Assembly (NCBI GenBank): GCA_043799675.1
Contig: JAZDNN010000008.1
Location: forward strand, 1-22,583
Length of the DNA stretch: 22,583 nt
Direction of reading: 5' to 3'
Source of the DNA: Candidatus Aenigmatarchaeota archaeon
GTDB lineage: Archaea > Aenigmatarchaeota > Aenigmatarchaeia > Aenigmatarchaeales > JACQIB01
Every line of letters begins with the position of its first letter. Position 1 is the first letter of the stretch. The position numbers and the translations under genes were made by a program. The notes beneath the pieces were generated by a model that was not told where the DNA came from, did no database searches, and saw only the letters and a program-made list of their open reading frames with translations. Shown here piece after piece: positions 8,189 through 21,976 of this stretch.

Positions 8189-8489
8189 AACAAAGAAGGA
8201 AGAAAAAAAGGCGGAAGGGGAGCAGCAGGTCGACCCGTGGACGATAGTGAGCCATCCGATGCTCAGCGAGAAGAGCATCGGAAGGATAGAGACCGAGAAC
8301 AAGCTGGTGTTCGTGGTGAGGAGCGAGGCGAACAAGAAGCAGATAAAGTGGGCGATCGAGACGGCCCTGAAGGTCAAGGTCGTGAACGTCAACACGCTCG
8401 TCGACAGGGACGGGGTGAAGAAGGCGATGGTCAGGCTGTCAAAGGAGTTCAGGGCCAGCGACATCGCGACGAGGTTCGGGATGCTGTAA
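8181..8489 (+). CDS. rpl23: 50S ribosomal protein L23 (uL23)
   Basis: HPMLSEKS...ENKLVFVV...ANKKQIKWAIE...VNVNTL; probable TTG start at 8181 after GGTGA SD. Confidence 0.95.
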   Translation: MAETKKEEKKAEGEQQVDPWTIVSHPMLSEKSIGRIETENKLVFVVRSEANKKQIKWAIETALKVKVVNVNTLVDRDGVKKAMVRLSKEFRASDIATRFGML

Positions 8490-8552
8490 TGGTGATGAAA
8501 TGAGTGAAAACAAAGTCTTCACGGCATCATCAAACACAGGTGTTTGCTGATG
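8489..8552 (+). other. Spacer L23-L2 with bridging mini-ORFs (MVMK, MSENKVFTASSNTGVC) and a hairpin over the rpl2 SD/start
   Basis: ORF 8489-8503 (TAATG overlap), ORF 8500-8550 (ATGA and TGATG overlaps); CATCA-T-CAAACA-CAGG-TGTTTG-C-TGATG stem at 8525-8552. Confidence 0.55.
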
Positions 8553-9254
8553 GGAAAGCGGATAATCTCAAGGGCACGCGGGCACGGCGGGCCGCGGTAC
8601 AGGTCGCCGTCGCACAGGTACGCCGGCAGATCGACCTATCCCAAACAGGACGGGGCCGCGCTGGTCAAGGACATTGTTCATGATACCGGCAGGGACGCGC
8701 CGCTTGCACTCGTACGGTTCCCGGACGGGAAGGAAAATCTGGTAATAGCTGCGGAGGGAACACACGTGGGACAGACGCTCTATTTCGGACTCGCGGATGC
8801 GCCGGCGAACAGCGGAAACGTGCTGCCTCTGTCGGTCGTGCCGAAGGGAGGCTCCGTGTTCGCGATAGAAATCACTCCCGGCGGGGGTCCGAAGCTGTGC
8901 TGCAGCGCCGGAACGCGGGCGCTGGTGGTGACGCAGGAAGCGAACAAAATCATACTTCAGATGCCGAGCAAGCAGTTCAGGGAACTGAACCCGGATTGCC
9001 GTGCGACCGTCGGAATACCGGCCGGCGGCGGAAGGGGCGATAAGCCTTACGTCAAGGCGGGACAGGTGTACTGGGCATCGTATGCGCGGAACAGGCTGTG
9101 GCCACGTTCAAGCGCAAGCAAGATGAACCCGGTCGACCACCCGTTCGGTGGACACACCAAGCCCGGAACGCCCAAGACCATCAGTACATGGGCGCCGCCA
9201 GGTGCGAAGGTCGGTAGCGTAGGCGCGAGGAGAAGCGGAAGGAGCAAGAAGTGA
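8550..9254 (+). CDS. rpl2: 50S ribosomal protein L2 (uL2)
   Basis: MGKRIISRARG...YRSPSHRY, DIVHDTGRDAPLA, MNPVDHPFGG motifs. Confidence 0.98.
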   Translation: MGKRIISRARGHGGPRYRSPSHRYAGRSTYPKQDGAALVKDIVHDTGRDAPLALVRFPDGKENLVIAAEGTHVGQTLYFGLADAPANSGNVLPLSVVPKGGSVFAIEITPGGGPKLCCSAGTRALVVTQEANKIILQMPSKQFRELNPDCRATVGIPAGGGRGDKPYVKAGQVYWASYARNRLWPRSSASKMNPVDHPFGGHTKPGTPKTISTWAPPGAKVGSVGARRSGRSKK

Positions 9255-9259
9255 TATAG

Positions 9260-9640
9260 ATGGTCAAAATATTCAGCTACAAGGGAAAGAGCATAGAGGA
9301 ACTGCAGAAGATGAGTCTCGAGGATTTTTCCAAGCTGCTCCCTTCGCGGCAGAGAAGGAGCCTCAGGAGAGGCATGACCCCGCTGGAGAAGAAGGTGCTT
9401 GAGAAGATCCGGACCAGCAAGAAGCCGGTAAGGACCCATGAGAGGGAAATGATAATCGTGCCCGAAATGGTCGGGAAGAAGATGAGCATCCATGCCGGGA
9501 AGGATTGGGTGGCTCTGGACATAACCGCCGAGATGCTGGGGCACAGGCTCGGAGAATTTGCGCTTACGAGGAAGAAGGTACAGCACAGCTCGCCGGGAGT
9601 GGGAGCGACCAGGAGCAGCAAGTTCCTGCCGCTGAAGTGA
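9260..9640 (+). CDS. rps19: 30S ribosomal protein S19 (uS19)
   Basis: [43 protein letters not shown]. Confidence 0.98.
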
Positions 9641-9649
9641 GATGATGAT

Positions 9650-9706
9650 ATGAAGTTGACAAATTCAACCAAGAGCAATTGGCCGGCAGAGCCGGCAGGT
9701 GCATGA
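9650..9706 (+). repeat. Intergenic double-hairpin element, copy 1 (S19-L22); mini-ORF MKLTNSTKSNWPAEPAGA
   Basis: ATGAA GTTGA-caaat-TCAAC CAA gagcaa TTG GCCGGC-aga-GCCGGC AGGTG CA TGA. Confidence 0.8.
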
Positions 9707-9708
9707 GA

Positions 9709-10116
9709 ATGGAATATGCGATGAAAACCACGAAGGAGATGGCAATCGCCAGCACAACGCTCAGGGCCAGCCCGAAGACGGTGCTGAAGATATGCAGGGC
9801 CCTCAACCGGAAGCAGTTCGCCGTTGCACAGGCGTTCACGGACAAGCTGGTGGCGCATGAGGTGAGCATGGACGGGAAGTTCCATGACAAGGCGGCGGAA
9901 GGGCTTCGACAGTTCCTCAGGGAAGTCGAGAACAACGCGAAACAGAAGAAGCTCGAACCGAAGGAAATGAAACTGATGATAAGCATGCACCAGGCGCCGA
10001 AGATGATGAGAGGAAGGAGACGGAGACGGCACGGGATGCTCATGAAGAACGCTCACGTCCAGGCGGTGCTCGTGCCCGTACAGAAAAAGGAGAAGAAAGA
10101 AACGAAGAAGGCATAA
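9709..10116 (+). CDS. rpl22: 50S ribosomal protein L22 (uL22), divergent
   Basis: LRASPKTVLKICRAL, LREVENNAKQK, NAHVQAVL; position between S19 and S3; alternative in-frame ATG at 9703. Confidence 0.93.
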   Translation: MEYAMKTTKEMAIASTTLRASPKTVLKICRALNRKQFAVAQAFTDKLVAHEVSMDGKFHDKAAEGLRQFLREVENNAKQKKLEPKEMKLMISMHQAPKMMRGRRRRRHGMLMKNAHVQAVLVPVQKKEKKETKKA

Positions 10117-10118
10117 TT

Positions 10119-10748
10119 ATGGTTGTTGAAAGAAAGTTCATCGGCGAGGCGATAAGGAAGAACAAGGTCCACGAGTACCTGGCAGAGGAGTTCTCGAAGG
10201 CCGGGTTCAGCCATGCAGAAATAGCAAGGACCCCCGTGGCGATGCGTGTTACAGTCTGGGTGCAGAAGCCCGGAATAGTCATCGGGCGCGGAGGGAAGAC
10301 GATTGATGCTCTGACCGAGACGCTCAAGACGAGGTTCGGCCTGGAGAACCCGCAGCTCGATGTCCAGGAAGTGCAGGAGCCCGACCTTGATGCCGCAATA
10401 GTCGCCAGGCAGATAGCGGCTGCCATTGAAAGGGGCCTCAACTACAAGAGGGTCGCGCAGCTCACGCTCCAAAGAGTGATGCAGGCGGGAGCCGCCGGAG
10501 TGGCGGTCAGGATAGGCGGAAAGCTCGGAGGGGAAGTCAGCAGGAGGGAAAAGTTCTCCGCTGGCTACCTGAAGTGGGCGGGAGAGCCGGCCGAGCAGCT
10601 CAGCAAGGGATATGCGACCGCGAGAGTGAAGCTCGGTAACATCGGGATACAGGTCAGGATACTCATAGAACAGCCGAAGGACCTGGTTTCAATGAGCAAA
10701 ATAATGGCGCAGCCGCAGCCCGAGCAGAAGACCGAGGAGACGAAATAA
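10119..10748 (+). CDS. rps3: 30S ribosomal protein S3 (uS3)
   Basis: KH motif KPGIVIGRGGKTI, PDLDAAIVARQIA, KLGNIGIQVRI. Confidence 0.98.
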   Translation: MVVERKFIGEAIRKNKVHEYLAEEFSKAGFSHAEIARTPVAMRVTVWVQKPGIVIGRGGKTIDALTETLKTRFGLENPQLDVQEVQEPDLDAAIVARQIAAAIERGLNYKRVAQLTLQRVMQAGAAGVAVRIGGKLGGEVSRREKFSAGYLKWAGEPAEQLSKGYATARVKLGNIGIQVRILIEQPKDLVSMSKIMAQPQPEQKTEETK

Positions 10749-10750
10749 TC

Positions 10751-11020
10751 ATGGCCATAATCAGGAAGAAGGCGATGAGGGAGATGGGCAGGGAAGACGC
10801 GAAAAAGAAAGTCGCGGAGCTCAGGCTCGAGCTCGCCAAGGACAGGGCGCAGGTCGCTGTCGGGGCGTCACCCGTGAACCCCGGAAAGATAAAGGAAACC
10901 AGGCGGGGGATAGCGCGGCTGCTCACGCTGGTGAAGTCGAAAGAGGAAGCGATGCTCAAGCAGGCATTGACAATCAAAGGAAACACAAAAACGAAGAAGG
11001 GGGTCGTCGGGGCTGGCTGA
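10751..11020 (+). CDS. rpl29: 50S ribosomal protein L29 (uL29) with basic C-terminal tail
   Basis: ELRLELAK...NPGKIKETRRGIARLLT. Confidence 0.95.
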   Translation: MAIIRKKAMREMGREDAKKKVAELRLELAKDRAQVAVGASPVNPGKIKETRRGIARLLTLVKSKEEAMLKQALTIKGNTKTKKGVVGAG

Positions 11021-11315
11021 GATCTGCAAGGTCTGCGGGTTCCCGAAGGAGTTGTGCATATGCGGGACACTGGCGAAGGAAGCGGCGAAGGTCAAGATAT
11101 ACACGGTCAAGAGGTCCTTCGGAAAGTCCGTGACCATCATAGAAGGGGTGTCGGAAGGGACCAAGGAACTGGCGAGCAAGCTGAAAACCAAGCTCGCGGC
11201 CGGGGGCACCATCAAGGAAGGACGAATAGAGATACAGGGCGAGCATGCCGCGAAAGTCAAGAAGCTGCTGCTGAACTCCGGGTTCAAGGAAGAGCAGATA
11301 GAGGTAGCGGGGTAA
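11013..11315 (+). CDS. sui1: Translation initiation factor aIF1 (SUI1), probable CTG start
   Basis: (M)AEICKVCGFPKELCICG Zn-knuckle-like N-terminus, FGKSVTIIEG, LKTKLAAGGT, IEIQGEH; no in-frame ATG/GTG/TTG between TGA 10968-10970 and the Cys motif. Confidence 0.92.
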   Translation: MAEICKVCGFPKELCICGTLAKEAAKVKIYTVKRSFGKSVTIIEGVSEGTKELASKLKTKLAAGGTIKEGRIEIQGEHAAKVKKLLLNSGFKEEQIEVAG

Positions 11316-11319
11316 TAAT

Positions 11320-11682
11320 ATGAGTCTAAGCAAAACGAAAAGGGCGAAGATGAAAGAGAAGAACATCGGTTTCTCCTCGGTGAGACCGCAGGAGACATGC
11401 ACCGATTCGAAGTGCCCGTGGCACGGCTCGCTGCCGGTAAGGGGACGGATGATAATCGGAACGGTCATGGCGGTGCGCGCACCGATGACGGCTACGGTCG
11501 AGTGGAACTACACGCGCTGGCTCCCGAAGTTCGAGCGGTTCGAGAGGAGACACAGTCACATCGTTGCGTACAGCCCGACCTGCATAGGGGCCAAGGAGGG
11601 CGACACGGTTAAGATAGCCGAGTGCAGGCCGCTCAGCAAGACCAAGAGCTTCGTGATAATCGAGAGGATGGGAAACAAATGA
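11320..11682 (+). CDS. rps17: 30S ribosomal protein S17 (uS17)
   Basis: CTDSKCPWHGSLPVRG, AECRPLSKTKSFV. Confidence 0.97.
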   Translation: MSLSKTKRAKMKEKNIGFSSVRPQETCTDSKCPWHGSLPVRGRMIIGTVMAVRAPMTATVEWNYTRWLPKFERFERRHSHIVAYSPTCIGAKEGDTVKIAECRPLSKTKSFVIIERMGNK

Positions 11683-12077
11683 AGTCAATATCGGCAAAGA
11701 TAACCGGGGCATTGCAGCCGGGAAGCAGCATGATATGCGCGGACAACAGCGGGGCGGACATGCTGGAGATGATATCGCTCAAGGGATACCACGGCGTCAA
11801 GAGGCGAAGGGCCACGGCAGGCATAGGCGACGTGATAGTCGCCGCGGTGAAGAAGGGCGACCCGAAGATGAGGCACGAGGTTGTGGAGGCGGTCATAATC
11901 AGGCAGAGAAGGGAGTTCCGGAGAAGGAACGGTCTGAGGGTCAGCTTCGAGGACAATGCGGCGGTGCTTGTCAACGAAAGGGGAGAACCGAGAGGGACGA
12001 GGCTCAAGGGCCCGCTCGCGAGGGAAGTGGTCGAGCGCTTCTCCGCCATCGGGAAGATAGCGGCAATAGTGGTGTAA
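11679..12077 (+). CDS. rpl14: 50S ribosomal protein L14 (uL14)
   Basis: CADNSGA, AVIIRQRRE, FEDNAAVLV; ATGA overlap with rps17. Confidence 0.98.
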   Translation: MKSISAKITGALQPGSSMICADNSGADMLEMISLKGYHGVKRRRATAGIGDVIVAAVKKGDPKMRHEVVEAVIIRQRREFRRRNGLRVSFEDNAAVLVNERGEPRGTRLKGPLAREVVERFSAIGKIAAIVV

Positions 12078-12437
12078 ATGAAAAGTGAAAATGCAGGAAA
12101 ACAACGGAAGGCAAGGGCGAACGCAGCCCTGCATGTGCGGCACAAGATGATGGCGGCCCACCTGTCCGAGCAGCTGCGCAGACAGGTGAGGAGAAGGAGC
12201 ATGCCGCTCAGGAAAGGGGACGAGGTGAGGGTGATGCGGGGCAGCTTCCGCGGAACCGTCGGAAAGGTGACGGAAGTCGACCTGAAGGAAATGAAGGCGT
12301 ACGTCGACAGCGTCAAGAGACGGAAGGTAAGCGGGACGGAGGTGCAGGTCGCGCTCGAACCCTCGAAACTCATAATCACGAATCCGGTGCTGGATGACCC
12401 CAGAAGGAAGCTCGTGCTGGAGAGGAAGAGGCAATGA
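12078..12437 (+). CDS. rpl24: 50S ribosomal protein L24 (uL24)
   Basis: KQRKARANAALH, LRKGDEVRVMRGSFRG (KOW), PSKLIIT. Confidence 0.97.
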   Translation: MKSENAGKQRKARANAALHVRHKMMAAHLSEQLRRQVRRRSMPLRKGDEVRVMRGSFRGTVGKVTEVDLKEMKAYVDSVKRRKVSGTEVQVALEPSKLIITNPVLDDPRRKLVLERKRQ

Positions 12438-12496
12438 TGCAAGTCAACGAAGTTGACCAAATGATGATTGGCTGCCCGAGGCAGCAGGAGCTATAA
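12434..12496 (+). repeat. Intergenic double-hairpin element, copy 2 (L24-S4e); mini-ORF MMQVNEVDQMMIGCPRQQEL
   Basis: ATG ATGCAA GTCAAC-gaa-GTTGAC CAA atgatga TTG GCTGCC-cga-GGCAGC AGGAG CTA TAA. Confidence 0.9.
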
Positions 12497-12498
12497 TC

Positions 12499-13191
12499 AT
12501 GGCAAGAATAGGCGGAAGGAGAAGGCTTGTAAGGGCGGAGACCACATGGGCTCCGAGCAGGAAGGCGATAAGGTTCGTAACGGCACCGCGCGGTGCACAT
12601 CCGATGGACAGGAGCATGCCGCTCCTGCTGGTGATTCGGGAGACGCTCGGGCTCGCAGACACCGCCCGCGAGGCGCGCCGTATAATCAAGGGGAAACAGG
12701 TCAAGGTCGACGGCAAGATTTGCAGGGACCATAAGCGCGGTCTCGGCCTGTTCGACACGATGGAAGTGGCGGGCAAGGCGTACAGGATGATCCCGTCACG
12801 CTCCGGGCTGCGAATGACCGAGATAGAAAAGCATGAGGCAAACTCGAAGGTCTGCCAGGTCACGACCAAGACGGCGGTGAGGGACGGGAAGATACAGATA
12901 GGGCTGCATGACGGGAGGAGCATACTTACAGAAAAAAGCGATGCTAAGCCGGGCGACAGCCTGCTGATAGAACTTCCGGGGCAGGCCGTGAAGGAAAAGC
13001 TGCCGCTCGAGGAAGGCGCGATATCTCTCATAACCTACGGTGCCAACGCGGGAAAGCTCGCACGGATACGGAAGATAGAACGCGGCCTGTACCCGAGGGC
13101 GTGGCTGCATGTCGATAACCAGACGTTCGAGGCCCCGCTCGCGGCGGTGATGCCGGTGGGCAAGGAGAAAGCGGTGATAAAAGTTGCATGA
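12499..13191 (+). CDS. rps4e: 30S ribosomal protein S4e (eS4)
   Basis: PRGAH...SMPLLLVIRE, VKVDGK, QIGLHDGRSI, GANAGK. Confidence 0.97.
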   Translation: MARIGGRRRLVRAETTWAPSRKAIRFVTAPRGAHPMDRSMPLLLVIRETLGLADTAREARRIIKGKQVKVDGKICRDHKRGLGLFDTMEVAGKAYRMIPSRSGLRMTEIEKHEANSKVCQVTTKTAVRDGKIQIGLHDGRSILTEKSDAKPGDSLLIELPGQAVKEKLPLEEGAISLITYGANAGKLARIRKIERGLYPRAWLHVDNQTFEAPLAAVMPVGKEKAVIKVA

Positions 13192-13271
13192 ACATCAGGC
13201 ATTGCAGTCTTCAGCTGCCGACAGAGGACACGAGACATTCCTGCCTTCGGCAGGCAATAGAGGAAATATAA
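13188..13271 (+). other. Spacer S4e-L5 with bridging mini-ORF (MNIRHCSLQLPTEDTRHSCLRQAIEEI) and hairpins
   Basis: ATGA overlap with the S4e stop, TAATG overlap with the L5 start; CCTGCC-ttc-GGCAGG hairpin at 13240-13254 just before the GAGG SD. Confidence 0.6.
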
Positions 13272-13768
13272 TGAGACAAATCAGGGTCGAGAAGGTCGTT
13301 CTCAACATCGGTGTAGGTGAGGCAGGGGAAAGGCTGGAGAAGGCGAAGAAGGTGCTCGAGACGGTGTCCAACGGAAGGAAGGTCATAGTCACCAAGGCGC
13401 ACAACAGGACGACGTTCGGCGCCGCGAAGGGCAGGCCGCTTGGAGTGGCCGTCACGCTGCGAGGAAAAGAGGCGCTCGCATTCCTGAAGAAGGCGTTCGA
13501 GGCGATAGACATGAAGCTGCCTGCGCGCGTGTTCGACAGGCAGGGGGACTTTTCGTTCGGAGTGAAGGAGCACATAGGGCTGCCGGGAACGAAGTATGAT
13601 CCTGAGATAGGAATATGGGGCATGGACGTCGCGGTGCGGCTGGCAAGAAGGGGCTACAGGGTGTCCAAGAAGAGGATATCCCACCGCGTCGGCATGAGCC
13701 ACCGCATCACTCCCGAGGAAGCGAGGGAGTGGACGGTAAGAAACCTGGACGTGAAGGTGGAAGAATGA
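13271..13768 (+). CDS. rpl5: 50S ribosomal protein L5 (uL5)
   Basis: [42 protein letters not shown]. Confidence 0.98.
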
Positions 13769-13923
13769 AGCCGATAAAAAAGGACAGGAAGTACGGCAAG
13801 GGGACATATCTCTGCAGGCGCTGCGGGAGATCCGGAGGGGTAATCAGGAAATACGGGCTGATGTACTGCCGCCAGTGCTTCCGTGAAGTGGCCAAGAACG
13901 TCGGCTTCAAGAAATACTCATAG
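13765..13923 (+). CDS. rps14: 30S ribosomal protein S14 (uS14, Zn-binding type)
   Basis: CRRCG...[19 protein letters not shown] overlap with rpl5. Confidence 0.97.
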
Positions 13924-13933
13924 GTGTGATGAC

Positions 13934-13993
13934 ATGAAAATCAGCTTCGTTGATGAAAGAAAAATTGGCTGCCAGAAGCAGCAGGTGCTATAA
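13934..13993 (+). repeat. Intergenic double-hairpin element, copy 3 (S14-S8); mini-ORF MKISFVDERKIGCQKQQVL
   Basis: ATGAAA ATCAGC-ttc-GTTGAT GAA agaaaaa TTG GCTGC-cagaa-GCAGC AGGTG CTA TAA. Confidence 0.88.
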
Positions 13994-13994
13994 T

Positions 13995-14381
13995 ATGAGA
14001 CATGACTTACTAAGCGACGCGTTGTCAGCGATACAGAACGGTGACAGGGTCGGCGGCAAGGAAGCGGTCAGCCCGGTATCCAACATGGTGAAGGATGTGA
14101 TGCAGGTGCTTCAGAAGCACAAGTACATCGGGAACTTCGAAATGGTGGACGACGGAAGGGGCGGAAGGTTCAGGGTAAGCCTCTTAGGCGCAATCAACCG
14201 CTGCGGTGCAATCAGACCCCGTTTCTCCATCAAGAAGGAGGAATGGGAGAAATGGGAGCGAAGATACCTGCCGGCCGTCGGGTTCGGCCTGCTCATAGTC
14301 AGCACCAGCAAGGGAGTGATGACGCACGACGATGCCAAGAAGGAAGGGGTGGGGGGAAAGCTGCTGGCTTTCGTTTATTGA
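13995..14381 (+). CDS. rps8: 30S ribosomal protein S8 (uS8)
   Basis: DLLSDALSAIQN, DDGRGG, INRCGAIRPRF, IVSTSKGVMTH. Confidence 0.98.
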   Translation: MRHDLLSDALSAIQNGDRVGGKEAVSPVSNMVKDVMQVLQKHKYIGNFEMVDDGRGGRFRVSLLGAINRCGAIRPRFSIKKEEWEKWERRYLPAVGFGLLIVSTSKGVMTHDDAKKEGVGGKLLAFVY

Positions 14382-14390
14382 GGGATAAAG

Positions 14391-14924
14391 ATGGAAAAAA
14401 CACTGAGCATACCTGCCGGCGTTCATGTCGATATCAAAGGGATGCACGTGACGGTGAAGGGACCGAAAGGGCACCTGCAGAAGGACTTCGCCAGCCCGGA
14501 GTTCGGGGGTCTGGTGAAGATGGAGAATGCCGCCGACAAGGTAAGGATATCGACCGAAGAGACAAAACGAAAATACAAGTCGGAGGTCGGGACCATAGTG
14601 GCGTGCGTAAACAACATGATGCAGGGAGTGACGGCGCCGTGGAAGTACAAGCTCAAGATAGTGTACATGCACTTTCCGGTCACAGTAAAGATGCAGGGCA
14701 GGGAAGTTATGATAAGCAACTTCCTCGGAGAGAAGGCCCCGAGAAAGGCGGAGATAATAGGCGACACAAAGGTCGAGATAGCCGGCGACGAAATAACCGT
14801 TACCGGCATAAATCTGGAAGAGGCGGGGCAGACGGCGGCAAACCTTGAGAGGGCGACCAGGATACTCGCGCGCGACAGGCGCGTGTTCATGGACGGAATA
14901 TTCATCACGGAGAAACCGAAGTGA
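14391..14924 (+). CDS. rpl6: 50S ribosomal protein L6 (uL6)
   Basis: VTVKGPKG, YMHFPVTV, NFLGEKAPR, DRRVFMDGIFI. Confidence 0.98.
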   Translation: MEKTLSIPAGVHVDIKGMHVTVKGPKGHLQKDFASPEFGGLVKMENAADKVRISTEETKRKYKSEVGTIVACVNNMMQGVTAPWKYKLKIVYMHFPVTVKMQGREVMISNFLGEKAPRKAEIIGDTKVEIAGDEITVTGINLEEAGQTAANLERATRILARDRRVFMDGIFITEKPK

Positions 14925-14932
14925 GAAATGAT

Positions 14933-15427: not shown

Positions 15428-15861
15428 GCAAGCAAAGCAGGACAGCCAATTCGCAAAGGAGAATCGCGTCAAAAATACTGAAGGCCGGTTCCAGCCGAGT
15501 ATGGATGGACCCGAACCAGGCGGCCAAGATATCCCAGGCCATCACCCGGACGGACATACGAAGGCTGATAGACAAGGGAATCATACGCGAGCTTCCCGAA
15601 AGGAAGCCCACGCCCGAGGCCGGTGCAAGAAAGCAGGATATCGGCAGCAGGAAGGGGGCGCGCGGTGCCAGGCTCCGCGGCGGAAAGAAGGAGCCGTGGC
15701 TGAACATAATCAGGCCGCAGCGACAAATGCTCAACGAGCTGAAACCGAGCCTGAAACCGATGGCGTACAGGAAGCTGTACCGGCTGGTCAAGGGCGGGGC
15801 GTTCAGGAGCAGGACGCACTTGAAGAGCTACGTGGAGGAGAAGAAGCTGCTCAATAAGTGA
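15424..15861 (+). CDS. rpl19e: 50S ribosomal protein L19e (eL19)
   Basis: QRRIASKILKAG..RVWMDP, AITRTDIRRLI, GSRKGARGAR, YRKLYRLVKGG. Confidence 0.97.
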   Translation: MSKQSRTANSQRRIASKILKAGSSRVWMDPNQAAKISQAITRTDIRRLIDKGIIRELPERKPTPEAGARKQDIGSRKGARGARLRGGKKEPWLNIIRPQRQMLNELKPSLKPMAYRKLYRLVKGGAFRSRTHLKSYVEEKKLLNK

Positions 15862-15866
15862 TTTAC

Positions 15867-15926
15867 ATGCAAGTTCATGAAATGAACCAAACGATGATTG
15901 GCTGCCAGAAGCAGCAGGAGCTATGA
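15867..15926 (+). repeat. Intergenic double-hairpin element, copy 5 (L19e-L18); mini-ORF MQVHEMNQTMIGCQKQQEL
   Basis: ATGCAA GTTCAT-gaa-ATGAAC CAA acgatga TTG GCTGC-cagaa-GCAGC AGGAG CTA TGA. Confidence 0.9.
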
Positions 15927-15928
15927 GT

Positions 15929-16510
15929 ATGGCAAAAACAGCGCTCTATACGATGCCCCACCGGAGACGGAGGGAGCAGAAGACCGATTACAGGATAAGG
16001 CTTGCCCTTGTCAGGAGCGGCAGCGTGAGGGCGGTCATACGGAAGAGCGGGAGCCACATGACCGTGCAGTTCGTGAAATGGGAGAAGGACGGTGATAGAA
16101 CATTGCTGACCGTAAGCAGCTCGCATCTGGCGAAGTTCGGATGGATGGCCGGCACCGGCAACGTTCCTGCAGCCTACCTGACCGGCCTGCTGGCCGCGAA
16201 GCTTGCGCGCACCGTGGATGTCAAGGACGCGATAATCGATTTCGGGATGCAAACGAACACGAAGGGCAGCAGGCTTTATGCCGCGGTCAAGGGCCTTGTC
16301 GACGGCGGCATCAATGTCCCTCACGATGCGGAGAGGCTGCCGGGTGAGGACAGGATAAGCGGGAAGCACATCGCGGCCTGGTCAGGTTCCGCGAAAAATT
16401 CGTTCACGTCTTATAAGGTCCGGGCTGCCGATTTGCAGAAGCACTTCGCCGAGGTCAAGGCGAAGATAGAGGCGGGAAGCAAAATTGCCGCCAAAGGCGG
16501 GAGCGTATGA
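15929..16510 (+). CDS. rpl18: 50S ribosomal protein L18 (uL18)
   Basis: RRRREQKTDYRIRLAL, NVPAAYLTGLL, KGLVDGGINVPH; alternative in-frame ATG at 15923. Confidence 0.97.
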   Translation: MAKTALYTMPHRRRREQKTDYRIRLALVRSGSVRAVIRKSGSHMTVQFVKWEKDGDRTLLTVSSSHLAKFGWMAGTGNVPAAYLTGLLAAKLARTVDVKDAIIDFGMQTNTKGSRLYAAVKGLVDGGINVPHDAERLPGEDRISGKHIAAWSGSAKNSFTSYKVRAADLQKHFAEVKAKIEAGSKIAAKGGSV

Positions 16511-17406
16511 TTATGGGAGAACAGGAATCGCACAAGCGGAGCCTTCCGAGAGAGCCGACCGCGCAGGAAACGGCGCAGAAACAGTCGATAAGCGAGACCG
16601 ATAACATCCTGCCGGCTGAGGTGGTGGAAGCCGCGAAGAAGGCGGAAGAAGCGGTAGTATTGACAAGCAAGCCCGGCATCCAGATGGGCGAGTGGAACCC
16701 GCGGACGCAGCTCGGGAAGGACGTGCTTGCCGGGAAGATAACCAGCATCGACCAGCTGTTCGAGGACGGGGTGAAGATAACCGAGCCGGGGATAGTTGAC
16801 GCACTGCTGCCCGGGCTCGCGCATGAAATAATTCTCATCGGAGGAAGCGGTGGAAAGGGCGGAGGGGTCAGGAGAACACCGTCAAGAAGGACATCAAGGA
16901 TGCACAAGAGCGGAAGACGATACAAGGTCTCGGCGATGGTGGTGGTCGGCAACGGCAACGGTTACGTCGGCATGGGTTATGCGCGCGGCATGCCGGGAAG
17001 ACACAAGGAAATAATAGAAAAGGCGCTGGTGAAGGCGAAGCTCAATCTCATACCGGTCATGCGCGGCTGCGGCAGCTGGGAATGCAGGGACGCCAGTCCT
17101 CATAGCATACCGTTCGCAGTCACCGGGAAGTCCGGCTCGGTGAAGATAACGTTCATGCCGGCGCCGCGCGGACTCGGTCTTGTGGTTTCGGATGAAGTGA
17201 AGAAGGTGCTCAGGCTGGCGGGGGTCGAAGACGTCTGGGCGAAGAGCAGGGGCCAGACCAGCAGCAGGGTCAACACCATTCATGCCGTATTCGACGCGTT
17301 CGGCAAGCTCAACAGGCTGAGGCTTTCCGAGGAATCCAAGCAGTCCGTCGGACTGAGGGTCGGAAGGGTCGGCCTGGGCTCGCCGCTGGTGAAGGGTGGT
17401 CAGTGA
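16507..17406 (+). CDS. rps5: 30S ribosomal protein S5 (uS5) with N-terminal extension
   Basis: WNPRTQLGK, RMHKSGRR, VVVGNGNGYVGMG, RGCGSWEC, PAPRGLGLV. Confidence 0.97.
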   Translation: MIMGEQESHKRSLPREPTAQETAQKQSISETDNILPAEVVEAAKKAEEAVVLTSKPGIQMGEWNPRTQLGKDVLAGKITSIDQLFEDGVKITEPGIVDALLPGLAHEIILIGGSGGKGGGVRRTPSRRTSRMHKSGRRYKVSAMVVVGNGNGYVGMGYARGMPGRHKEIIEKALVKAKLNLIPVMRGCGSWECRDASPHSIPFAVTGKSGSVKITFMPAPRGLGLVVSDEVKKVLRLAGVEDVWAKSRGQTSSRVNTIHAVFDAFGKLNRLRLSEESKQSVGLRVGRVGLGSPLVKGGQ

Positions 17407-17834
17407 TGCTCGCAGTGATAAGATTGAGGGGTACGGTCAACATGCGGAAGGACAAAATTGAGACGCTCAGGCTGATGAGGCTGAACAGGAAGATGCATTG
17501 CGTGCTCATACCGGAGAACAAATCATACAAGGGAATGATACAGATGGCGAAGGACTACATCACATGGGGCACGATAAGCGATGCACTTCTCGAGAAACTG
17601 ATTGCCAAGAGGGGAAGGAAGACAGGGGACGTCAGGCTGAATGCGGAGGAAGTCAAGCAGATAATCAATGAGCTCAAGAACGGGGCATCTGCCAATGAGC
17701 TGGGAATAAAGCCGGTGTTCAGGCTGAACCCGCCGAGCGGCGGTTTCAAGCACGGCATCAAGCACGCCTATCCGAAAGGGGAGCTGGGCAACCGGAAGGA
17801 AAAGATCAACGAGCTGCTGGAGAAGATGATTTAG
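17406..17834 (+). CDS. rpl30: 50S ribosomal protein L30 (uL30)
   Basis: AVIRLRG, KDYITWG, FRLNPPSGG, INELLEKMI; GTG at 17403 is an alternative start. Confidence 0.97.
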   Translation: MLAVIRLRGTVNMRKDKIETLRLMRLNRKMHCVLIPENKSYKGMIQMAKDYITWGTISDALLEKLIAKRGRKTGDVRLNAEEVKQIINELKNGASANELGIKPVFRLNPPSGGFKHGIKHAYPKGELGNRKEKINELLEKMI

Positions 17835-18299
17835 ATGGCAACGCTAGGCACGCTCTGTTTCATCGAGAAGGAAGGCAAATACCTGATGCAGCTGAAGAAC
17901 GACAATAAGTTCGGCGGCGGAAGGTGGAACGCGCCCGGCGGAAAGACGAAGGAAAACGAGAGCGTGGAGCAGGGGGTCGTGAGGGAAATCCTGGAAGAGA
18001 CCGGTTTGAAGATAAGAAACGCGAAGAAGCGGGCGGTGCTGAACTTCTTCAACGGGGACGAGTTCGCGTGGGCGGTGCATGTTTTTGCCACAAAGGATTT
18101 CGAGGGAAAGGTCAAGTCCAGCGAAGAAGGGGAACTGAAGTGGATGGACAAGGGCAGCCTTCCGTATGCGCAGATGTGGGAGGACGACAGGCACTGGGTG
18201 CCGCTCGTGACGGAAGGGAAGAACTTTGAGGCAAACTTCCACTTCAAGGAAAACTTCAAGGACATATTCAAGTGGTCGGTCAAACTGGTGAGCATATGA
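17835..18299 (+). CDS. Nudix hydrolase, MTH1/NUDT1-like (8-oxo-dGTPase type)
   Basis: Complete Nudix box G-KTKEN-E-SVEQGVV-REILEETGL; FGGGRWNAPGGK and MWEDDRHWVP resemble MTH1-family signatures; abuts rpl30 and overlaps rpl15 (ATGA). Confidence 0.9.
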   Translation: MATLGTLCFIEKEGKYLMQLKNDNKFGGGRWNAPGGKTKENESVEQGVVREILEETGLKIRNAKKRAVLNFFNGDEFAWAVHVFATKDFEGKVKSSEEGELKWMDKGSLPYAQMWEDDRHWVPLVTEGKNFEANFHFKENFKDIFKWSVKLVSI

Positions 18300-18736
18300 C
18301 AGCAAGATTCCGCAAGAAAGTAAGAAGGATGAGGGGGACCCACACGCACGGCTGGGGCGAGAAGAAGAAGCACCGAGGGGCCGGAAGCAGGGCGGGCAGG
18401 GGAAGGAGCAACTGGCTGTATTCAAAGAGGAGCTATACTTACGCTTACGAGCCCGAGAGGCTCGGCAAGAAGGGATTCACGTTCAAGCCGAAGAAGGAGG
18501 ACATACGCAGCATAAACATAAGGGACATCGAAAGCATGGCCATAAGCAGGAAGAGCAGGGACATTGATGTGGCTTCCCTCGGATTCAACAGGGTGCTCGG
18601 GAACGGGCAGCTCACGATGCCCATCAACGTCAAGGCGCCGCGGATATCGCCCAAGGCAAGGGCGAAGATAGAAGGCGCAGGCGGCAAAGCGGAAGAGACG
18701 GCGCCGAAGAATGAGGGGAAGAAGGAGGGGAAGTAA
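18296..18736 (+). CDS. rpl15: 50S ribosomal protein L15 (uL15)
   Basis: RGTHTHGWGEKKKHRGAGSRAGRG, GKKGF, VLGNG, KIEGAGG. Confidence 0.97.
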   Translation: MTARFRKKVRRMRGTHTHGWGEKKKHRGAGSRAGRGRSNWLYSKRSYTYAYEPERLGKKGFTFKPKKEDIRSINIRDIESMAISRKSRDIDVASLGFNRVLGNGQLTMPINVKAPRISPKARAKIEGAGGKAEETAPKNEGKKEGK

Positions 18737-20394
18737 TGGACGACGTTCCCGTCGCCCAGCCTGCAGGGCCGTCAGGCCAGACACCATCGGCAGAACCGTC
18801 CCATTCGTTATTGCATCCGCAGCACGAGGAGGAACACAAGCCGAAGAAGAGTTTCAAGTTCGATCTTGCGAGCATAGGGACGAGATTCCCGTCGGTGAAG
18901 AAGCCCGAGCTCAAACTGCCGTTCAGGCAGAAACTGGTGTGGACGGGCGCCATACTGGTGCTGTTCTACGTCCTCGGAAGCATCAACGCGTGGGGGATAG
19001 ACGCGAACGCGGTGGCCAGGTTCGATTTTCTTGAAATAATTTTCGGAAGCAAGTTCGGTTCCATAATTACGCTCGGTATCGGACCGATAGTCACCGCCTC
19101 CATCATTCTGCAGCTGCTGGTCGGGGCCAAGATACTGAACTGGGACACCAAGACGTCGGAAGGGAAGGCCAAGTTCATGGGGACGCAGAAACTTCTTGCG
19201 GTCGCGTTCAGCCTCTTTGAGGCAATCGCCTATGTCGTGGCCGGTGCGGTGCCGCCTGCGGCGGGCGGAGGGGCCCCGTTGATGATGGCCGTCATACTTC
19301 AGCTGGCGGCAGGAGGTATACTGATAATTTTCATGGATGAGGTCGTGAGCAAGTGGGGAATAGGCTCCGGAGTCAGCCTGTTCATCGCGGCCGGAGTGGC
19401 AAAGACCATAATCGTCCGCGTGTTCAACCCGCTCACCGCCGCCGGGGCGTGGCCCAGCATCGAGGAGCCGGCTTCCGGCCTGATACCGGGCATGATAGCC
19501 TACATCGCGGCCGGGCAGCCCACTCAGGCGCTCATCAGCCTGTTCCCGCTCCTGGCAACGGGTGCGGTGTTCGTCATAGTACTTTTCGCGCAGGCAATGA
19601 AAATCGAGATACCGATGGCAATAACCATGCCCTACGGCCGTTTCGGTTCCAGGCGCTGGCCGCTGCGTTTCATCTACACCAGCAACATTCCGGTCATCCT
19701 TGTCGCTGCGGTATTGGCCAATGTGCAGGTGGTGGTAAGGACGATGGCGAACCAGGGGATGACCTGGCTCGGGACATACGACCAGCAGGGCTCGCCGCTG
19801 AGCGGGCTCGCCCTTTTCCTGCAAGCGCCGAGCAGCACGAGCCTGATGGTAACATCGGTCATTGCCGGCCTGTTCGCCCTCGGAATAGGGCTGCTGGTGG
19901 CACTCAGGTTCAAGAAGTGGGTGCTGAGGAGCATAGTTGTCAGTTCGATAGCCGGACTTTTCTTAGGTTCGCTCCTGCTCGGGACGTTCGGCCTGCCTCA
20001 GATTACATCGCTGGACGCGTCCAGGGTCGCGGTCCATATGCTGATAATGGTCGTCGGCAGCGTGATTTTCGGAATGTTCTGGGTCCAGACGGCCGGAATG
20101 GACGTCCACAGCGTGGCGGAGCAGTTCAAGTCCAGCTTCCTCAGTATACCCGGCTTCAGACGCGACCCGCGGATAATCGAGTCGGTGCTGCAGCGCTACA
20201 TACCCGCGGTCACGGTGCTGGGCAGCGCGTTCGTGGGATTCCTGGCGGGCTTTGCGGACCTCACCAACGCGATAGGTTCCGGGACAGGAATACTGCTGAC
20301 GGTCATGATAGTGTACCAGCTGTACGAGCAGATAGGGCAGCAGCACGGCTCGGAGCTGCCGCAATGGCTGCAGAAATGGATGGGAGTGGCATGA
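18736..20394 (+). CDS. secY: Preprotein translocase subunit SecY (Sec61alpha), 552 aa, elongated
   Basis: TLGIGPIVTASIILQLL, KWGIGSGVSLFIAAGV, YTSNIPVIL, IPGFRRDPR, GSGTGILLTV. Confidence 0.98.
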   Translation: MDDVPVAQPAGPSGQTPSAEPSHSLLHPQHEEEHKPKKSFKFDLASIGTRFPSVKKPELKLPFRQKLVWTGAILVLFYVLGSINAWGIDANAVARFDFLEIIFGSKFGSIITLGIGPIVTASIILQLLVGAKILNWDTKTSEGKAKFMGTQKLLAVAFSLFEAIAYVVAGAVPPAAGGGAPLMMAVILQLAAGGILIIFMDEVVSKWGIGSGVSLFIAAGVAKTIIVRVFNPLTAAGAWPSIEEPASGLIPGMIAYIAAGQPTQALISLFPLLATGAVFVIVLFAQAMKIEIPMAITMPYGRFGSRRWPLRFIYTSNIPVILVAAVLANVQVVVRTMANQGMTWLGTYDQQGSPLSGLALFLQAPSSTSLMVTSVIAGLFALGIGLLVALRFKKWVLRSIVVSSIAGLFLGSLLLGTFGLPQITSLDASRVAVHMLIMVVGSVIFGMFWVQTAGMDVHSVAEQFKSSFLSIPGFRRDPRIIESVLQRYIPAVTVLGSAFVGFLAGFADLTNAIGSGTGILLTVMIVYQLYEQIGQQHGSELPQWLQKWMGVA

Positions 20395-20479
20395 AACGTT
20401 TTGCCCGTCACCCTCTTGTGAACGGAGTGATATCACATTTTGCCCGTCATGCTGTTTGTAGCGGGGGAATATGAAATGA
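20391..20479 (+). other. Spacer secY-adk with bridging mini-ORF (MKRFARHPLVNGVISHFARHAVCSGGI), 12-bp direct repeat and palindrome
   Basis: ORF 20391-20474 (ATGA overlap with secY); TTTTGCCCGTCA at 20399-20410 and 20438-20449; GTGATATCAC palindrome at 20427-20436. Confidence 0.55.
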
Positions 20480-21132
20480 GGCTTCTTATTTTCGGACCGC
20501 AGGGCAGCGGCAAGGGGACGTATGCCAGCAGGCTGTCGCCGATTCTGGGGATACCGCACATAAGCACAGGCGACCTGTTCAGAGCCGAAATAAAGGCGGG
20601 AACCACCCTCGGAAAACATGTCGAGGGAATAATAAACGCCGGCAACCTCGTGCCGGACGGCACGGTGTTTGACGTGATACGGAAGAGGCTGGCGCAACAT
20701 GATGCCAAGAACGGCTTCATATTCGACGGATTCCCGCGAAACCAAAAACAGGCCGAAGAGCTTGACAGGATGACAAAGATAGATGCGGTCATCAACCTGG
20801 TGGTCCCCGACGAGATACTGATAAAACGGCTGAGCGCAAGGGTCCAGTGCAGGGCCGCCGGGCACATCTACAACCTGCTGACCCTCAAGCCAAAGGTCGG
20901 GGGCAAGTGCGACACCGACGGGAGCGAGCTTTACCAGAGGGACGATGACAAGCCGGATGCCATAAAAAAGAGGCTGAAGCTCTACCGTGAGCAGAGCGCC
21001 CCGCTGCTCGAACACTACAGGAAGAAGGGGCTGGTGATAGACTCGGCGGTCAACGATCTGATGACGCCGCCGGAGGTCGTGGTCGCAAGAATCCTCGCTG
21101 CTTTAAAAGGGTCGGAGGGAAAGAGGCGCTGA
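20476..21132 (+). CDS. adk: Adenylate kinase (bacterial-type, LID-containing)
   Basis: P-loop GPQGSGKGT, HISTGDLFR, FDGFPR, LID region and QRDDD. Confidence 0.97.
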   Translation: MRLLIFGPQGSGKGTYASRLSPILGIPHISTGDLFRAEIKAGTTLGKHVEGIINAGNLVPDGTVFDVIRKRLAQHDAKNGFIFDGFPRNQKQAEELDRMTKIDAVINLVVPDEILIKRLSARVQCRAAGHIYNLLTLKPKVGGKCDTDGSELYQRDDDKPDAIKKRLKLYREQSAPLLEHYRKKGLVIDSAVNDLMTPPEVVVARILAALKGSEGKRR

Positions 21133-21136
21133 GAAC

Positions 21137-21604
21137 ATGTTCGAGTTCATAACCGATGCCGTGGGAGCGTTTTTCAGTCCGCTGCTGGTATTGCCATCAA
21201 TAGTCGTGGTCGCCGGCATGGCGGTCTTCCTTACGGTCGTCAGCACGCTCTGCTACAGGTTCCTGGTCGACCAGAACAAGGTGAGGGAGATAAAGCAGAA
21301 GCTGAAGGAACTGGGGAAGCAGTCAAAGAAGACCGAGCAGCCGGAGGAAGCGAAGGCCGCGATGAGCGAGATGCTCAAACTGCAGAATTCGCAGATGAAG
21401 ATGAACATGAAGCCGATGATAGTCACCCTGCTGATAGTCGCGATGATACTGCCGTGGATGTCGGCAACGTTCAAGGGCGAAGTCGCCGTCCTGCCGATAA
21501 GCCTGCCGTACTTCGGCGCGGATTTCGGCTGGCTGATGTGGTACTTCGTGGTCAGCATACCGGTCACGCAGGTGGCAAGGAAACTGATGGGGGTCGAATC
21601 CTGA
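21137..21604 (+). CDS. DUF106 / EMC3-TMCO1 (Oxa1 superfamily) membrane protein
   Basis: TM, coiled coil, TM, TM layout with MKPMIVT and GWLMWYF motifs; conserved position after secY-adk. Confidence 0.9.
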   Translation: MFEFITDAVGAFFSPLLVLPSIVVVAGMAVFLTVVSTLCYRFLVDQNKVREIKQKLKELGKQSKKTEQPEEAKAAMSEMLKLQNSQMKMNMKPMIVTLLIVAMILPWMSATFKGEVAVLPISLPYFGADFGWLMWYFVVSIPVTQVARKLMGVES

Positions 21605-21629
21605 ACGGATTCATAACGAAGGTGTTCAT

Positions 21630-21914
21630 ATGAGAAGACAATTGCGCTCAAACTCGGTGAAGAAGATGAAGGTCGTCACACCGGGAGGAAGGACGGTCAT
21701 GCATTTCAAGAAGGGGAGGCACAACCATCAGCAATGCGCCAACTGCGGTATCAAGCTCAACAGGGTCACTTTGGACCCCCATCAAATCAGGTCCCTTGCA
21801 AAGAGCTCGAGAAGGCCGGAGAGGCGCTTCCCCGAGCTCTGCGTGAAGTGCAGCCGCGAGATGCTGAAGGTGAAGATGCTTGGCGGCACACTGGAGAAGA
21901 AGGTGTTTGGATGA
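21630..21914 (+). CDS. rpl34e: 50S ribosomal protein L34e (eL34)
   Basis: VTPGGRTVMHF, CANCG, SSRRPER...LCVKC. Confidence 0.95.
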   Translation: MRRQLRSNSVKKMKVVTPGGRTVMHFKKGRHNHQQCANCGIKLNRVTLDPHQIRSLAKSSRRPERRFPELCVKCSREMLKVKMLGGTLEKKVFG

Positions 21915-21976
21915 ATGGCATAAGCAGCGTAGCTGCCAAGAACAGTCTTGGCCGGCGAAGCCGGCAGGTGTTATGA
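21911..21976 (+). repeat. Intergenic double-hairpin element, copy 6 (L34e-L14e); mini-ORF MNGISSVAAKNSLGRRSRQVL
   Basis: ATG aatggcat AA GCAGC-gta-GCTGC CAA gaacagtc TTG GCCGGC-gaa-GCCGGC AGGTG TTA TGA; ATGA overlaps at both ends. Confidence 0.8.

Follow-up and report, generated by a model that had tools for sequence, protein, structure and literature searches.

Structured, apparently mobile cassettes on the start codons of an archaeal ribosomal-protein operon may relay ribosomes to the genes behind them

Introduction

The window studied here, a 22,583-nt stretch of contig JAZDNN010000008.1 from a Candidatus Aenigmatarchaeota archaeon (assembly GCA_043799675.1, referred to as G000: a DPANN archaeon, 749 kb, 83% complete), carries an archaeal ribosomal-protein supercluster on its + strand, at 6413-22326. 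Most junctions between the genes of this operon are stop/start overlaps (ATGA, TAATG) or leave 0-9 nt, one leaves 25 nt, and nine leave 58-81 nt. What are these nine long spacers, and how is a ribosome that has finished one gene reaching the next across them? A preliminary description, made from the letters of the window alone, noticed a mini open reading frame (mini-ORF) across every long spacer and proposed a ribosome-relay system, in which structured spacers would not break translational coupling or would act as translation-dependent gates on the downstream genes. The analysis reported here offers a related answer with a different history. The spacers are probably structured mobile cassettes of ~50-80 nt that have landed on start codons and relay ribosomes to the gene. 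The relay is the reading that the sequence supports best; the idea of a system integral to the operon has to be given up, as the spacers look like recent mobile insertions from at least three families, and none of the results supports the gate variant.

Mini-ORFs across the nine spacers

Each of the nine long spacers contains an ATG-started mini-ORF of 16-27 codons running from the upstream stop to the downstream start: 8500-8550 (16 aa), 9650-9706 (18 aa), 12434-12496 (20 aa), 13188-13271 (27 aa), 13934-13993 (19 aa), 14933-14992 (19 aa), 15867-15926 (19 aa), 20391-20474 (27 aa) and 21911-21976 (21 aa). All nine pairs of coordinates had been reported exactly, and the claim that all long spacers are bridged holds for every operon spacer of at least 58 nt (9/9). 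How short are the hops at the two ends? Counted from the final base of the upstream stop, the mini-ORF ATGs stand at -3 to +11 nt, as an ATGA overlap in four of the nine and at +6 to +11 nt in the others. At the 3' end the mini-ORF stop ends -3 to +3 nt from the downstream ATG in 9/9. The ATGA, TGATG and TAATG overlaps listed in the preliminary description are indeed found at the mini-ORF ends, including the four ATGA at the 5' hop. A strict Shine-Dalgarno (SD)-like string (GGTG, GGAG, GAGG, AGGT or GTGAT) stands at -15 to -4 of the mini-ORF ATG in six of the nine spacers, and SD sites of the GTGAT type serve real starts in relatives.

Would such frames arise by chance? Shuffling was dinucleotide-preserving and limited to spacer interiors, with the flanks fixed (20,000 shuffles per spacer). 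The probability of a spanning ORF was, in operon order, 0.04, 0.08, 0.03, 0.42, 0.04, 0.06, 0.23, 0.08 and 0.48, which gives 1.46 expected against 9/9 observed and a product of 8e-10, or 7e-4 with the six related spacer copies counted as one event. Such a shuffle had been named at the outset as a check on the relay, and spanning ORFs came out rarer in the shuffled spacers.

Repeat families and their structure

Are the nine spacers alike? The cassettes fall into at least three families: family A/B, which has two hairpins that covary, the 8500 type and the S4e-L5 element. The SecY-Adk spacer is taken up by a REP-like unit. The three spacers that had been set apart earlier as lying outside the repeat family are those with the 8500 type, the S4e-L5 element and the REP-like unit. 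Full copies of the family A/B repeat occupy the spacers at 12437, 13934, 14933 and 15867, and diverged members are found at 9650 and 21918. The repeat family and its two hairpins, both put forward in the preliminary description, are real: over 16 copies, 94.4% of the hairpin cells are paired against 79.1% in shuffles (0/500 reach the observed value), pairing falls to 8-45% when the partners are slid, and six of six pairs in hairpin 1 and two of five in hairpin 2 change on both sides. A third hairpin in the middle (CCAA..TTGG) shows no covariation, so no claim is made for it.

Family A/B gives 29 covariance-model hits in the 749-kb genome, 19 of them in non-tRNA contexts, and the 8500 type is found at three genome loci and at one more in a related contig (L052, introduced below). 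On other contigs (C numbers, all of G000) family A/B copies precede unrelated genes, and the listed mRNA copies are all co-oriented with the gene downstream. Three of them, C6:10350, C6:10473 and C16:43013, lie behind divergent promoter regions and have no upstream gene, and tandem pairs occur at C10:57606/57672 and C16:9531/9593. A gene of 60 codons or more follows at 17 of the non-tRNA loci, and at 15 of these the element is read through by an ORF whose end falls -8 to +4 nt from a gene start. The relay had been described as a feature of the operon; it does hold there, but the same cassettes also precede unrelated genes, including the first genes of transcription units.

The REP-like family has at least 15 loci in the genome, mostly just after the 3' ends of genes. 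Its units (~40 nt, each with a hairpin) stand singly or in arrays of up to five; they were seen at window 20395-20475, at C17:2996-3182 and C42:2339-2453 of G000, on C12, C2, C8 and C18, and elsewhere. Rfam found no family in the window beyond a chance-level isrK match (E 0.11).

Insertion at start codons

Where do the cassettes sit, and what was there before? Twenty relatives at the level of family and order (L5 protein 52-66% identical; automatic gene models) offer 145 measurable counterparts of the nine junctions, and 114 of these are at most 20 nt long. Closer relatives are metagenome contigs of the Joint Genome Institute, among them L055, whose L5 is 73% identical, and L052 (88%). L055 has the whole operon without any cassette. 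At S19-L22, L052 reads 'TGA GATGAT ATG aactacgca' where the window has 'TGA GATGAT ATG', the cassette and then 'ATG gaatatgcg'. Because the identical 'TGA GATGAT ATG' stands at the empty site of L052, ATG 9650 is, by this comparison, the ancestral L22 start with its ancestral ribosome-binding region, and the cassette lies between it and ATG 9709. Further empty sites are provided by L052 for L23-L2, L24-S4e and S14-S8, and by L055 for L6-L32e, L19e-L18 and L34e-L14e. The second ATG is preceded by an SD that the cassette itself brings along (AGGTG or AGGAG), beside or in its 3' hairpin. As part of the whole reading, which we regard as likely, all nine spacers would be insertions on or beside the start codons of genes once joined by overlaps or by a few bases.

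Are the cassettes moving? Strain variants of the operon were collected as Logan contigs from four sediment metagenomes (X1-X4; all DNA, at least 85% likeness to the operon); these represent related strains or species, and joints that fall in repeats call for care. Positions 8499-8550 are absent in runs X2-X4. At L6-L32e, all four runs have an 8500-type sequence in place of the 14933 copy, with an ATG that fits both sides of the joint. X1-X3 carry a 12437-type copy at L22-S3, a junction of 2 nt in the window, and 63 extra letters at the S17 start codon. The Joint Genome Institute contigs bear out this picture independently. L052 has an 8500-type cassette at L6-L32e, another cassette at L5-S14, a junction that is an ATGA overlap in the window, and, at L19e-L18, two cassettes in tandem whose ORFs, 19 and 38 aa long, form a chain. 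In L051, whose proteins are 98-100% identical to those of the window, a 15867-like copy is found at L24-S4e instead of the 12437 copy. Among contigs and loci whose likeness is 85-99%, seven junctions have thus seen a cassette lost, gained or swapped, and the covariance model finds family A/B in one of 40 relatives' genomes (G003, two hits). Judged from these differences, the cassettes are mobile.

What kind of element could they be? Copies are flanked on both sides by AT/ATG in mRNAs or by (G)AAT in tRNA genes, which fits a 2-3-bp duplication, or else the start codon and the bulges of the bulge-helix-bulge (BHB) structure. An IS200/IS605-type origin was rejected, with no Y1 transposase in the 83%-complete genome and no constant target tetranucleotide. 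So was the identity of a miniature inverted-repeat transposable element: the two ends, (C)ATG(A/C)A.. on the 5' side and GCTATGAGNAT on the 3' side, do not match each other as inverted repeats would (judged by eye on the alignment, with no formal scan).

Is the frame selected?

Single-base indels in the linker and the tail have brought the conserved tail CAGGTGCTATGA into three reading frames, each with a stop at the gene start. Most copies read the tail in frame 1, CAG GTG CTA TGA/TAA. The frame 2 tails AGG TGC TAT TAG, TTC TAG and TGC TAG are those of C17:2170, C16:10091 and C10:57607, and the frame 3 tail, GGT GCA TGA, is found at 9700, where one tail base is missing. Only at C16:9532 does the ORF run into the gene, by 8 nt. 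The stop is newly made in four of the five off-frame copies, for which the rough chance is ~0.002 (assuming a stop chance of about 15% in the last 3-4 codons). Tandem copies are open across both units, over 37 and 34 codons, and over ~37 at C6:39755; in the tandem of L052 the chained 19- and 38-codon ORFs show ATGA and TGATG overlaps.

Do the relatives keep their spacers bridged? In L051, L052 and L054, 7/8 spacers of 30-200 nt hold spanning ORFs against 1.35 expected, in a count that omits the spacer with a conserved zinc-ribbon gene and an aIF1 spacer that is an artefact of the start call. Orthologous spacers had been proposed as a check in the preliminary description, together with frame-preserving lengths, and on both points the relatives bear it out; the S4e-L5 spacers measure 79, 43, 46 and 61 nt, all 1 modulo 3. 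In tRNA-borne copies that have the homologous ATG, and whose genes are not translated, the frame is not closed by a stop at the element end. These patterns suggest that selection acts on the mini-ORF frame.

A proposed relay

How would a ribosome cross such a spacer? Each cassette lies between the ancestral ATG, with the old SD kept, and a second ATG. Having ended the upstream gene, or loaded on the old SD, a ribosome would start at the old ATG, read 16-27 codons while melting the hairpins, and stop on the new ATG or at most 4 nt from it. It would restart there by termination-reinitiation, helped by the cassette SD, so that each hop would measure at most 11 nt although the genes are 58-81 nt apart. 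The open frame and its terminal stop would be kept by selection, because without them the products of the old start would be extended or out of frame and the genes would lose their coupling. In tRNA genes, the insertion of family A/B would be neutralised by splicing and not by translation. The relay looks like a condition for tolerating the insertion and not a dedicated regulatory device; it would be the cost at which a selfish insertion is tolerated, as has been proposed for mycobacterial repeats discussed below.

Why would a frame be needed at all? In the sections available of Huber et al. 2023 (PMC10666635), termination-reinitiation coupling depends on very short distances, and a distance of ~20 nt almost abolishes it in Haloferax and E. 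coli. A 60-80-nt insertion would therefore need a bridging frame, as an untranslated insert of that size would uncouple the ribosomal-protein genes. The ATGA and TGATG stop/start overlaps are common to those systems and to the operon; the cases known from these sections couple two real genes directly, whereas here a non-coding-looking mini-cistron, or two in a chain, stands between. Huber et al. 2019 (PMC6728339) is reportedly a further source on coupled cistrons, named alongside the 2023 one. If the relay operates as outlined, it shows how a highly conserved, tightly coupled operon can absorb repeated selfish insertions with its expression retained, each insertion bringing its own small frame, ribosome-binding site and stop/start overlap. 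In such genomes gene callers would mis-place starts and tRNA finders would miss most tRNAs.

tRNA introns of the same family

Is family A/B confined to mRNAs? Iterated nhmmer searches also recruited stretches that start with GGTTCGAAT and end in ...CCA, which are tRNA genes. In them an insert of 52-58 nt interrupts the T-loop at 59/60 and shares its two hairpins, its linker and its tail with the mRNA cassettes; the linker is A/T-rich in the mRNA cassettes and GC-rich in the tRNA copies. With the insert removed, ARAGORN calls a tRNA across the site in 10/11 cases, and the isotypes obtained (Ile, Ala twice, Gly twice, Leu twice, Gln, Asn and Pro) are unreliable since other introns remain. When the covariance model is built from mRNA copies alone (16 of them), it recovers eight tRNA T-loop inserts at full length, with E-values of 2.5e-6 to 0.017 that are only roughly calibrated. 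With a profile of 18 mRNA copies, nhmmer recovers four tRNA inserts (E 0.003-0.03), and with one of six tRNA inserts it recovers, in turn, three mRNA copies (E 0.004-0.02). One further copy, C16:18404, lies at another position of a tRNA gene.

Do these inserts look spliceable? Read along the tRNA, the BHB parts come in the order T-stem, UUCG, AA|U, intron, UGAG, A(A/G)|U, T-stem. The fit holds in 5/6 inserts: four of the six have 4/4 central pairs by script, and C6:2295, with a covariant UCCG/UGGA, was added by hand because the script set its 3' boundary wrongly. The outer helix is a 5-of-5 T-stem in 5/6. Family A/B would form BHB introns in the T-loop of at least ten tRNA genes. The window has its own example, a multi-intron tRNA gene of 186 nt at 436-621 on the + strand, in whose T-loop (59/60) an intron of this two-hairpin family occupies 549-604 and scores E 4e-4 with the mRNA-only covariance model. 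As it stands, this gene is detected by neither ARAGORN nor Rfam, but ARAGORN calls a tRNA there when the insert is taken out; for the unedited window it reports none, and for the whole genome only 17, several of them doubtful.

Is this one mobile family in two niches, a spliced BHB intron in tRNA genes and a translated relay on mRNA starts? The evidence leaves us evenly divided, and the tRNA-intron link is the newest and less secure part of the finding. If it is true, non-canonical tRNA introns of archaea can arise by insertion of a dispersed repeat at the DNA level, and a repeat would persist wherever the host neutralises the insertion, by splicing it out or by translating through it. The tail UAUGAG would then be a BHB helix strand in tRNAs and a stop plus start codon in mRNAs. 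A shared family that moves among close strains would also make the gain of archaeal tRNA introns directly testable.

Alternative explanations

Could the mRNA cassettes be introns as well? They might be true BHB introns, cut out by the splicing endonuclease and joined by RtcB, so that the ancestral SD-ATG-gene junction is restored and the mini-ORF matters at most in unspliced transcripts. In at least ten tRNA genes this family supplies spliceable T-loop introns, the genome has two EndA subunit genes and RtcB, and at least one mRNA is apparently spliced, as the rtcB gene has a 31-nt BHB intron. The cassettes have an ATG at both ends, so their excision would recreate the empty-site sequence of relatives, and the L19e-L18 and L34e-L14e spacers do form 4-of-4 pairs of the central helix in the A|TG register. 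The other seven of the nine, however, form 0-2 of the four pairs in that register, and the outer helix is found in 0/9. A general BHB scan put the nine spacers no higher than shuffles (P 0.17-1.0); it recovered the rtcB intron and missed the T-loop introns, so its sensitivity is limited and the test is a weak one. In the tRNAs one strand of the central helix is the T-loop, which has no counterpart at the mRNA sites, where the genes are intact without excision, and splicing alone leaves the frame-compensated stops and the in-frame tandems unexplained. We consider this explanation unlikely. Another view needs neither splicing nor a relay: the spanning ORFs would be the passive legacy of an open master copy, with no selection and no translation. 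The four core copies in the window do have identical 60-nt ORFs without indels, the terminal TGA lies in the conserved tail TATGAG, which is a BHB helix strand in the tRNA copies, stops are rare since the sense strand is T-poor, and in three spacers a spanning ORF has a shuffle probability of 0.23-0.48. But a legacy would hardly give the same layout in unrelated families (the 8500 type and S4e-L5), nor stops gained at the gene start in 4/5 of the copies shifted by 1 nt. Tandems open over 34-38 codons, the tRNA copies of the family that lack termination at the element end, and the 21911 copy, which lost its own ATG and gained one overlapping the upstream stop, also speak against it, so that we rate it a little lower still than splicing.

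Might the spacers rather be regulatory RNA, be it sites for ribosomal proteins or L7Ae, processing or stability hairpins, attenuators with leader peptides or internal promoters, with mini-ORFs that sense or gate translation? Compensatory changes keep the hairpins, GTGATGA-like strings stand at several 5' ends, and the element lies directly on the ribosome-binding region. The same cassettes occur, however, before unrelated genes and inside tRNA genes, and their presence or absence and the swapping of members among close strains are a poor fit to gene-specific control. The peptides are not conserved and the frame differs among copies, there is no Rfam match, no T-run follows the hairpins, and the linker that is A/T-rich here is GC-rich in tRNA copies. 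Such a role is accordingly the least probable of the three, and we think it very improbable. Narrower candidates of this kind were dropped as well. A C/D-box or kink-turn reading of the GTGATGA strings lacks a D box, and the same strings are the native SD at empty sites; an internal promoter with the linker as TATA box fails on the GC-rich linker of the tRNA copies and would make the downstream SD useless; an intrinsic terminator or attenuator would want the T-run; and a leader peptide or micropeptide is contradicted by three frames with differing peptides (...IGCPRQQVL, ...LAARGSRCY, ...NWPAEPAGA) beside hairpins that covary.

What then weighs against the relay on mobile cassettes, the reading preferred here? 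The ORF signal within family A/B is largely inherited from the master copy, and the independent evidence for the frame comes down to a few frame-shifted or tandem copies and three or four families. Elsewhere in the genome, bridging is seen in 10/136 co-directional spacers of 35-130 nt where 5.2 would be expected, about twofold, in a count on crude gene models in which some genes are missed and some starts mis-set. The model does not account for the hairpins, spacer folding energies are unremarkable (z -2.9 to +0.07), and the lack of a Y1 transposase (PF01797) in the 83%-complete genome also counts here. Single copies deviate: the S4e-L5 ORF of L052 begins 22 nt after the stop and is an exception, C11:2316 has a half-length ORF only, the ORF of C4:15173 runs for 86 codons with no clear downstream gene, and one G003 copy, located in a 5' leader, meets its stop after four codons. 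Lastly, the REP-like family has no consistent ORF elsewhere in the genome, which makes the bridging at SecY-Adk (shuffle P 0.08) the least secure of the nine cases. A genome-wide rule by which every long co-directional spacer is bridged was also considered and is unsupported by the 10/136 count. The copy C4:15173-15243 (locus L085 874-944) itself has a frame of doubtful coding value, lies opposite a possible small membrane-protein gene and is surrounded by sequence without an Rfam match.

Relation to known systems

Are there precedents? The closest are mycobacterial interspersed repetitive units, or MIRUs, which the accessible part of Brown & Wade 2025 (PMC12548453) describes as mobile short repeats at start codons in operons, with an internal ORF coupled at -4. 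The same text, citing Supply et al. 1997, suggests that this ORF minimises the effect of the insertion. On that description the cassettes resemble MIRUs as dispersed short repeats, apparently mobile, inserted at start codons in operons and with an ORF stop coupled to the gene start. They differ in being archaeal (DPANN) and in having two covarying hairpins and an SD of their own. Their coupling goes through ATGA, TGATG, TAATG or gaps of 0-4 nt and not through -4 alone, several unrelated families share one layout, and one of these families also forms tRNA introns. The cassettes would work like MIRUs; the likeness is functional, and no kinship in sequence is claimed. The literature search found no archaeal account of start-codon relay repeats, only the bacterial MIRUs, and no repeat common to tRNA introns and mRNA start sites, with supplementary files outside its scope.

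Transposed non-canonical tRNA introns have been described for the Thermoproteales (Fujishima et al. 2010, as cited in PMC4090602; bioRxiv 10.64898/2026.10.13.758758), and in the portions available both of these sources call the route by which archaeal tRNA introns arrive or transpose unknown. The introns described there and those of family A/B have in common that one family occupies many isotypes (at least ten genes here) at a non-canonical position (59/60 here) with BHB geometry. Here, however, the family is also found on mRNA start codons, where it is apparently translated and not spliced, and such copies go unmentioned in those portions. What about BHB introns in archaeal mRNAs? The examples in the accessible text of PMC7714728 are cbf5 in Crenarchaeota and the 5' untranslated region of HVO_1309 in Haloferax. 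The cassettes are likewise small mRNA elements in an organism with EndA and RtcB, whose rtcB mRNA has such an intron; in contrast to those examples, the nine spacers have no recognisable BHB and the gene is readable without excision.

The individual spacers

The operon reads L3, L4, L23, L2, S19, L22, S3, L29, aIF1/SUI1, S17, L14, L24, S4e, L5, S14, S8, L6, L32e, L19e, L18, S5, L30, a NUDIX gene, L15, SecY, Adk, a DUF106-like gene, L34e and L14e, with names taken from the translations and from a gene order that relatives keep. All features below are on the + strand. Between L23 and L2, a family C ('8500-type') cassette at 8499-8549 holds the mini-ORF 8500-8550 (MSENKVFTASSNTGVC followed by a stop), whose TGA overlaps the L2 ATG as TGATG. 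Its SD, AGGTG, is part of the loop region of the 3' hairpin (AAACAC/GTGTTT). The cassette is missing from X2-X4 (a 52-nt skip) and from L052 ('TAG gtgattga ATG'). The other 8500-type copies, at C4:48900, C10:58961 and L6-L32e of L052, all have a spanning ORF and a 50-nt ATG-to-ATG spacing, and the first two have overlaps at or near both ends. Just upstream, a four-codon micro-ORF (MVMK and a stop) at 8489-8503 is linked by a TAATG overlap to the L23 stop and by an ATGA overlap to the mini-ORF start, and similar micro-ORFs occur at 9642-9653 and 13929-13937. These micro-ORFs may be a by-product of the GGTGATGA-type SD, because the empty S19-L22 site of L052 has the same 'TGA G ATG ATA TGA'.

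The S19-L22 spacer has a family A/B cassette at 9650-9708 (mini-ORF 9650-9706; covariance-model E 8.7e-16). Its tail is 1 nt shorter (GGT GCA TGA), which puts the stop in the frame of this copy, and the working L22 start is most likely 9709 (MEYAMK). The family A cassette of L24-S4e, at 12437-12498 (mini-ORF 12434/12437-12496; E 5.7e-19), consists of hairpin 1 at 12443-12457, hairpin 2 at 12471-12485 and the SD AGGAG at 12486-12490. This site is empty in L052 ('TAA tt ATG'), and a variant, 12495 A>G, keeps the stop (TAA to TGA). The S4e-L5 spacer element at 13188-13271 carries a 27-codon mini-ORF, with ATGA at the S4e stop and TAATG at the L5 start, and contains the hairpin CCTGCC-TTCG-GGCAGG. 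The orthologous spacers measure 43 nt in L051, 46 nt in L054 and 61 nt in L052, with ORFs that span in L051 and L054; in X1, X4 and L051 the spacer is 36 nt shorter.

Three further family A cassettes follow. That of S14-S8 lies at 13934-13994 (mini-ORF 13934-13993; E 6.6e-17), and its empty site in L052 reads 'TGA aggtgaaatgaa ATG'. At L6-L32e, cassette and mini-ORF both occupy 14933-14992 (E 6e-19), the TAA stands immediately before the L32e ATG, and L055 has 'TGA tcat ATG'. The cassette of L19e-L18 is found at 15867-15928 (mini-ORF 15867-15926; E 3.3e-19); the GTGAT 4 nt before ATG 15867 is the ancestral SD, the L18 start is 15929 (MAKT) or 15923, and L055 reads 'TGA ATG'. The SecY-Adk spacer, 20391-20474, is built of two ~40-nt REP-like units (TTTTGCYCGTCA...GAACGGAG.AATATCA) under a 27-codon spanning ORF. 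Between L34e and L14e a family B cassette lies at 21911-21978 (mini-ORF 21911-21976; E 1.4e-13). Its own ATG is now ATA (21921-21923), and the same frame is opened by an ATG that overlaps the L34e stop; L055 has 'TAA ATG' here, and X1-X3 have 56 other letters at 21943-21949. The copy, taken as 21912-21981, is predicted to fold into a closed four-way junction with a 7-bp closing stem and three short hairpins (z = -2.9). The closing stem joins the two ends of the cassette, and in other copies it has only 3-5 bp.

Splicing machinery and neighbouring genes

Which splicing enzymes does the genome encode? The rtcB gene, at G000:C16:57796-59134 (locus L092 1209-2814), has its 31-nt insert inside HWG|YGFPIGG, and the insert forms a BHB with UGGG/CUCA, the bulges GU|A and AA|U and a 9-bp inner helix. 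EndA is found at G000:C10:51469-52295 (locus L090 1474-2615, minus strand) as two adjacent genes of 226 and 191 aa, each with PF01974, an arrangement that indicates a two-subunit enzyme. The two-subunit type of EndA has a broad specificity.

How do other genomes fill their junctions? In G016, G021 and G024, which belong to one genus in the same order (loci L036, L045 and L044), A-rich spacers of 30-500 nt stand at nearly every operon junction and often end in '..AATGATATTGTNGTGAT..ATG', with no consistent spanning ORFs; they are a different solution or a different repeat family. Gene content also varies among relatives. The NUDIX hydrolase gene lies between L30 and L15 in the window (17835-18299) and between S14 and S8 in L053 and L055. 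A gene of the size of Rpp29, which relatives have between aIF1 and S17 (gap ~273 nt), is absent from the window, and so is the small zinc-ribbon gene between L32e and L19e of L052 and L055.

Where does aIF1 itself start? The aIF1/SUI1 gene of the window, 11013-11315, has no ATG, GTG or TTG before its conserved CxxC N-terminus (ICKVCGFPKELCIC from 11022). In frame, the window and L052 read CTG GCT GAG AT(C/A) TGC, against ATG GTT GAG ATA TGC in L054. This comparison suggests that aIF1, an initiation factor policing start-codon choice, has a CTG start codon; comparable cases are infC of bacteria, which starts at AUU, and eIF1, whose start lies in a poor context.

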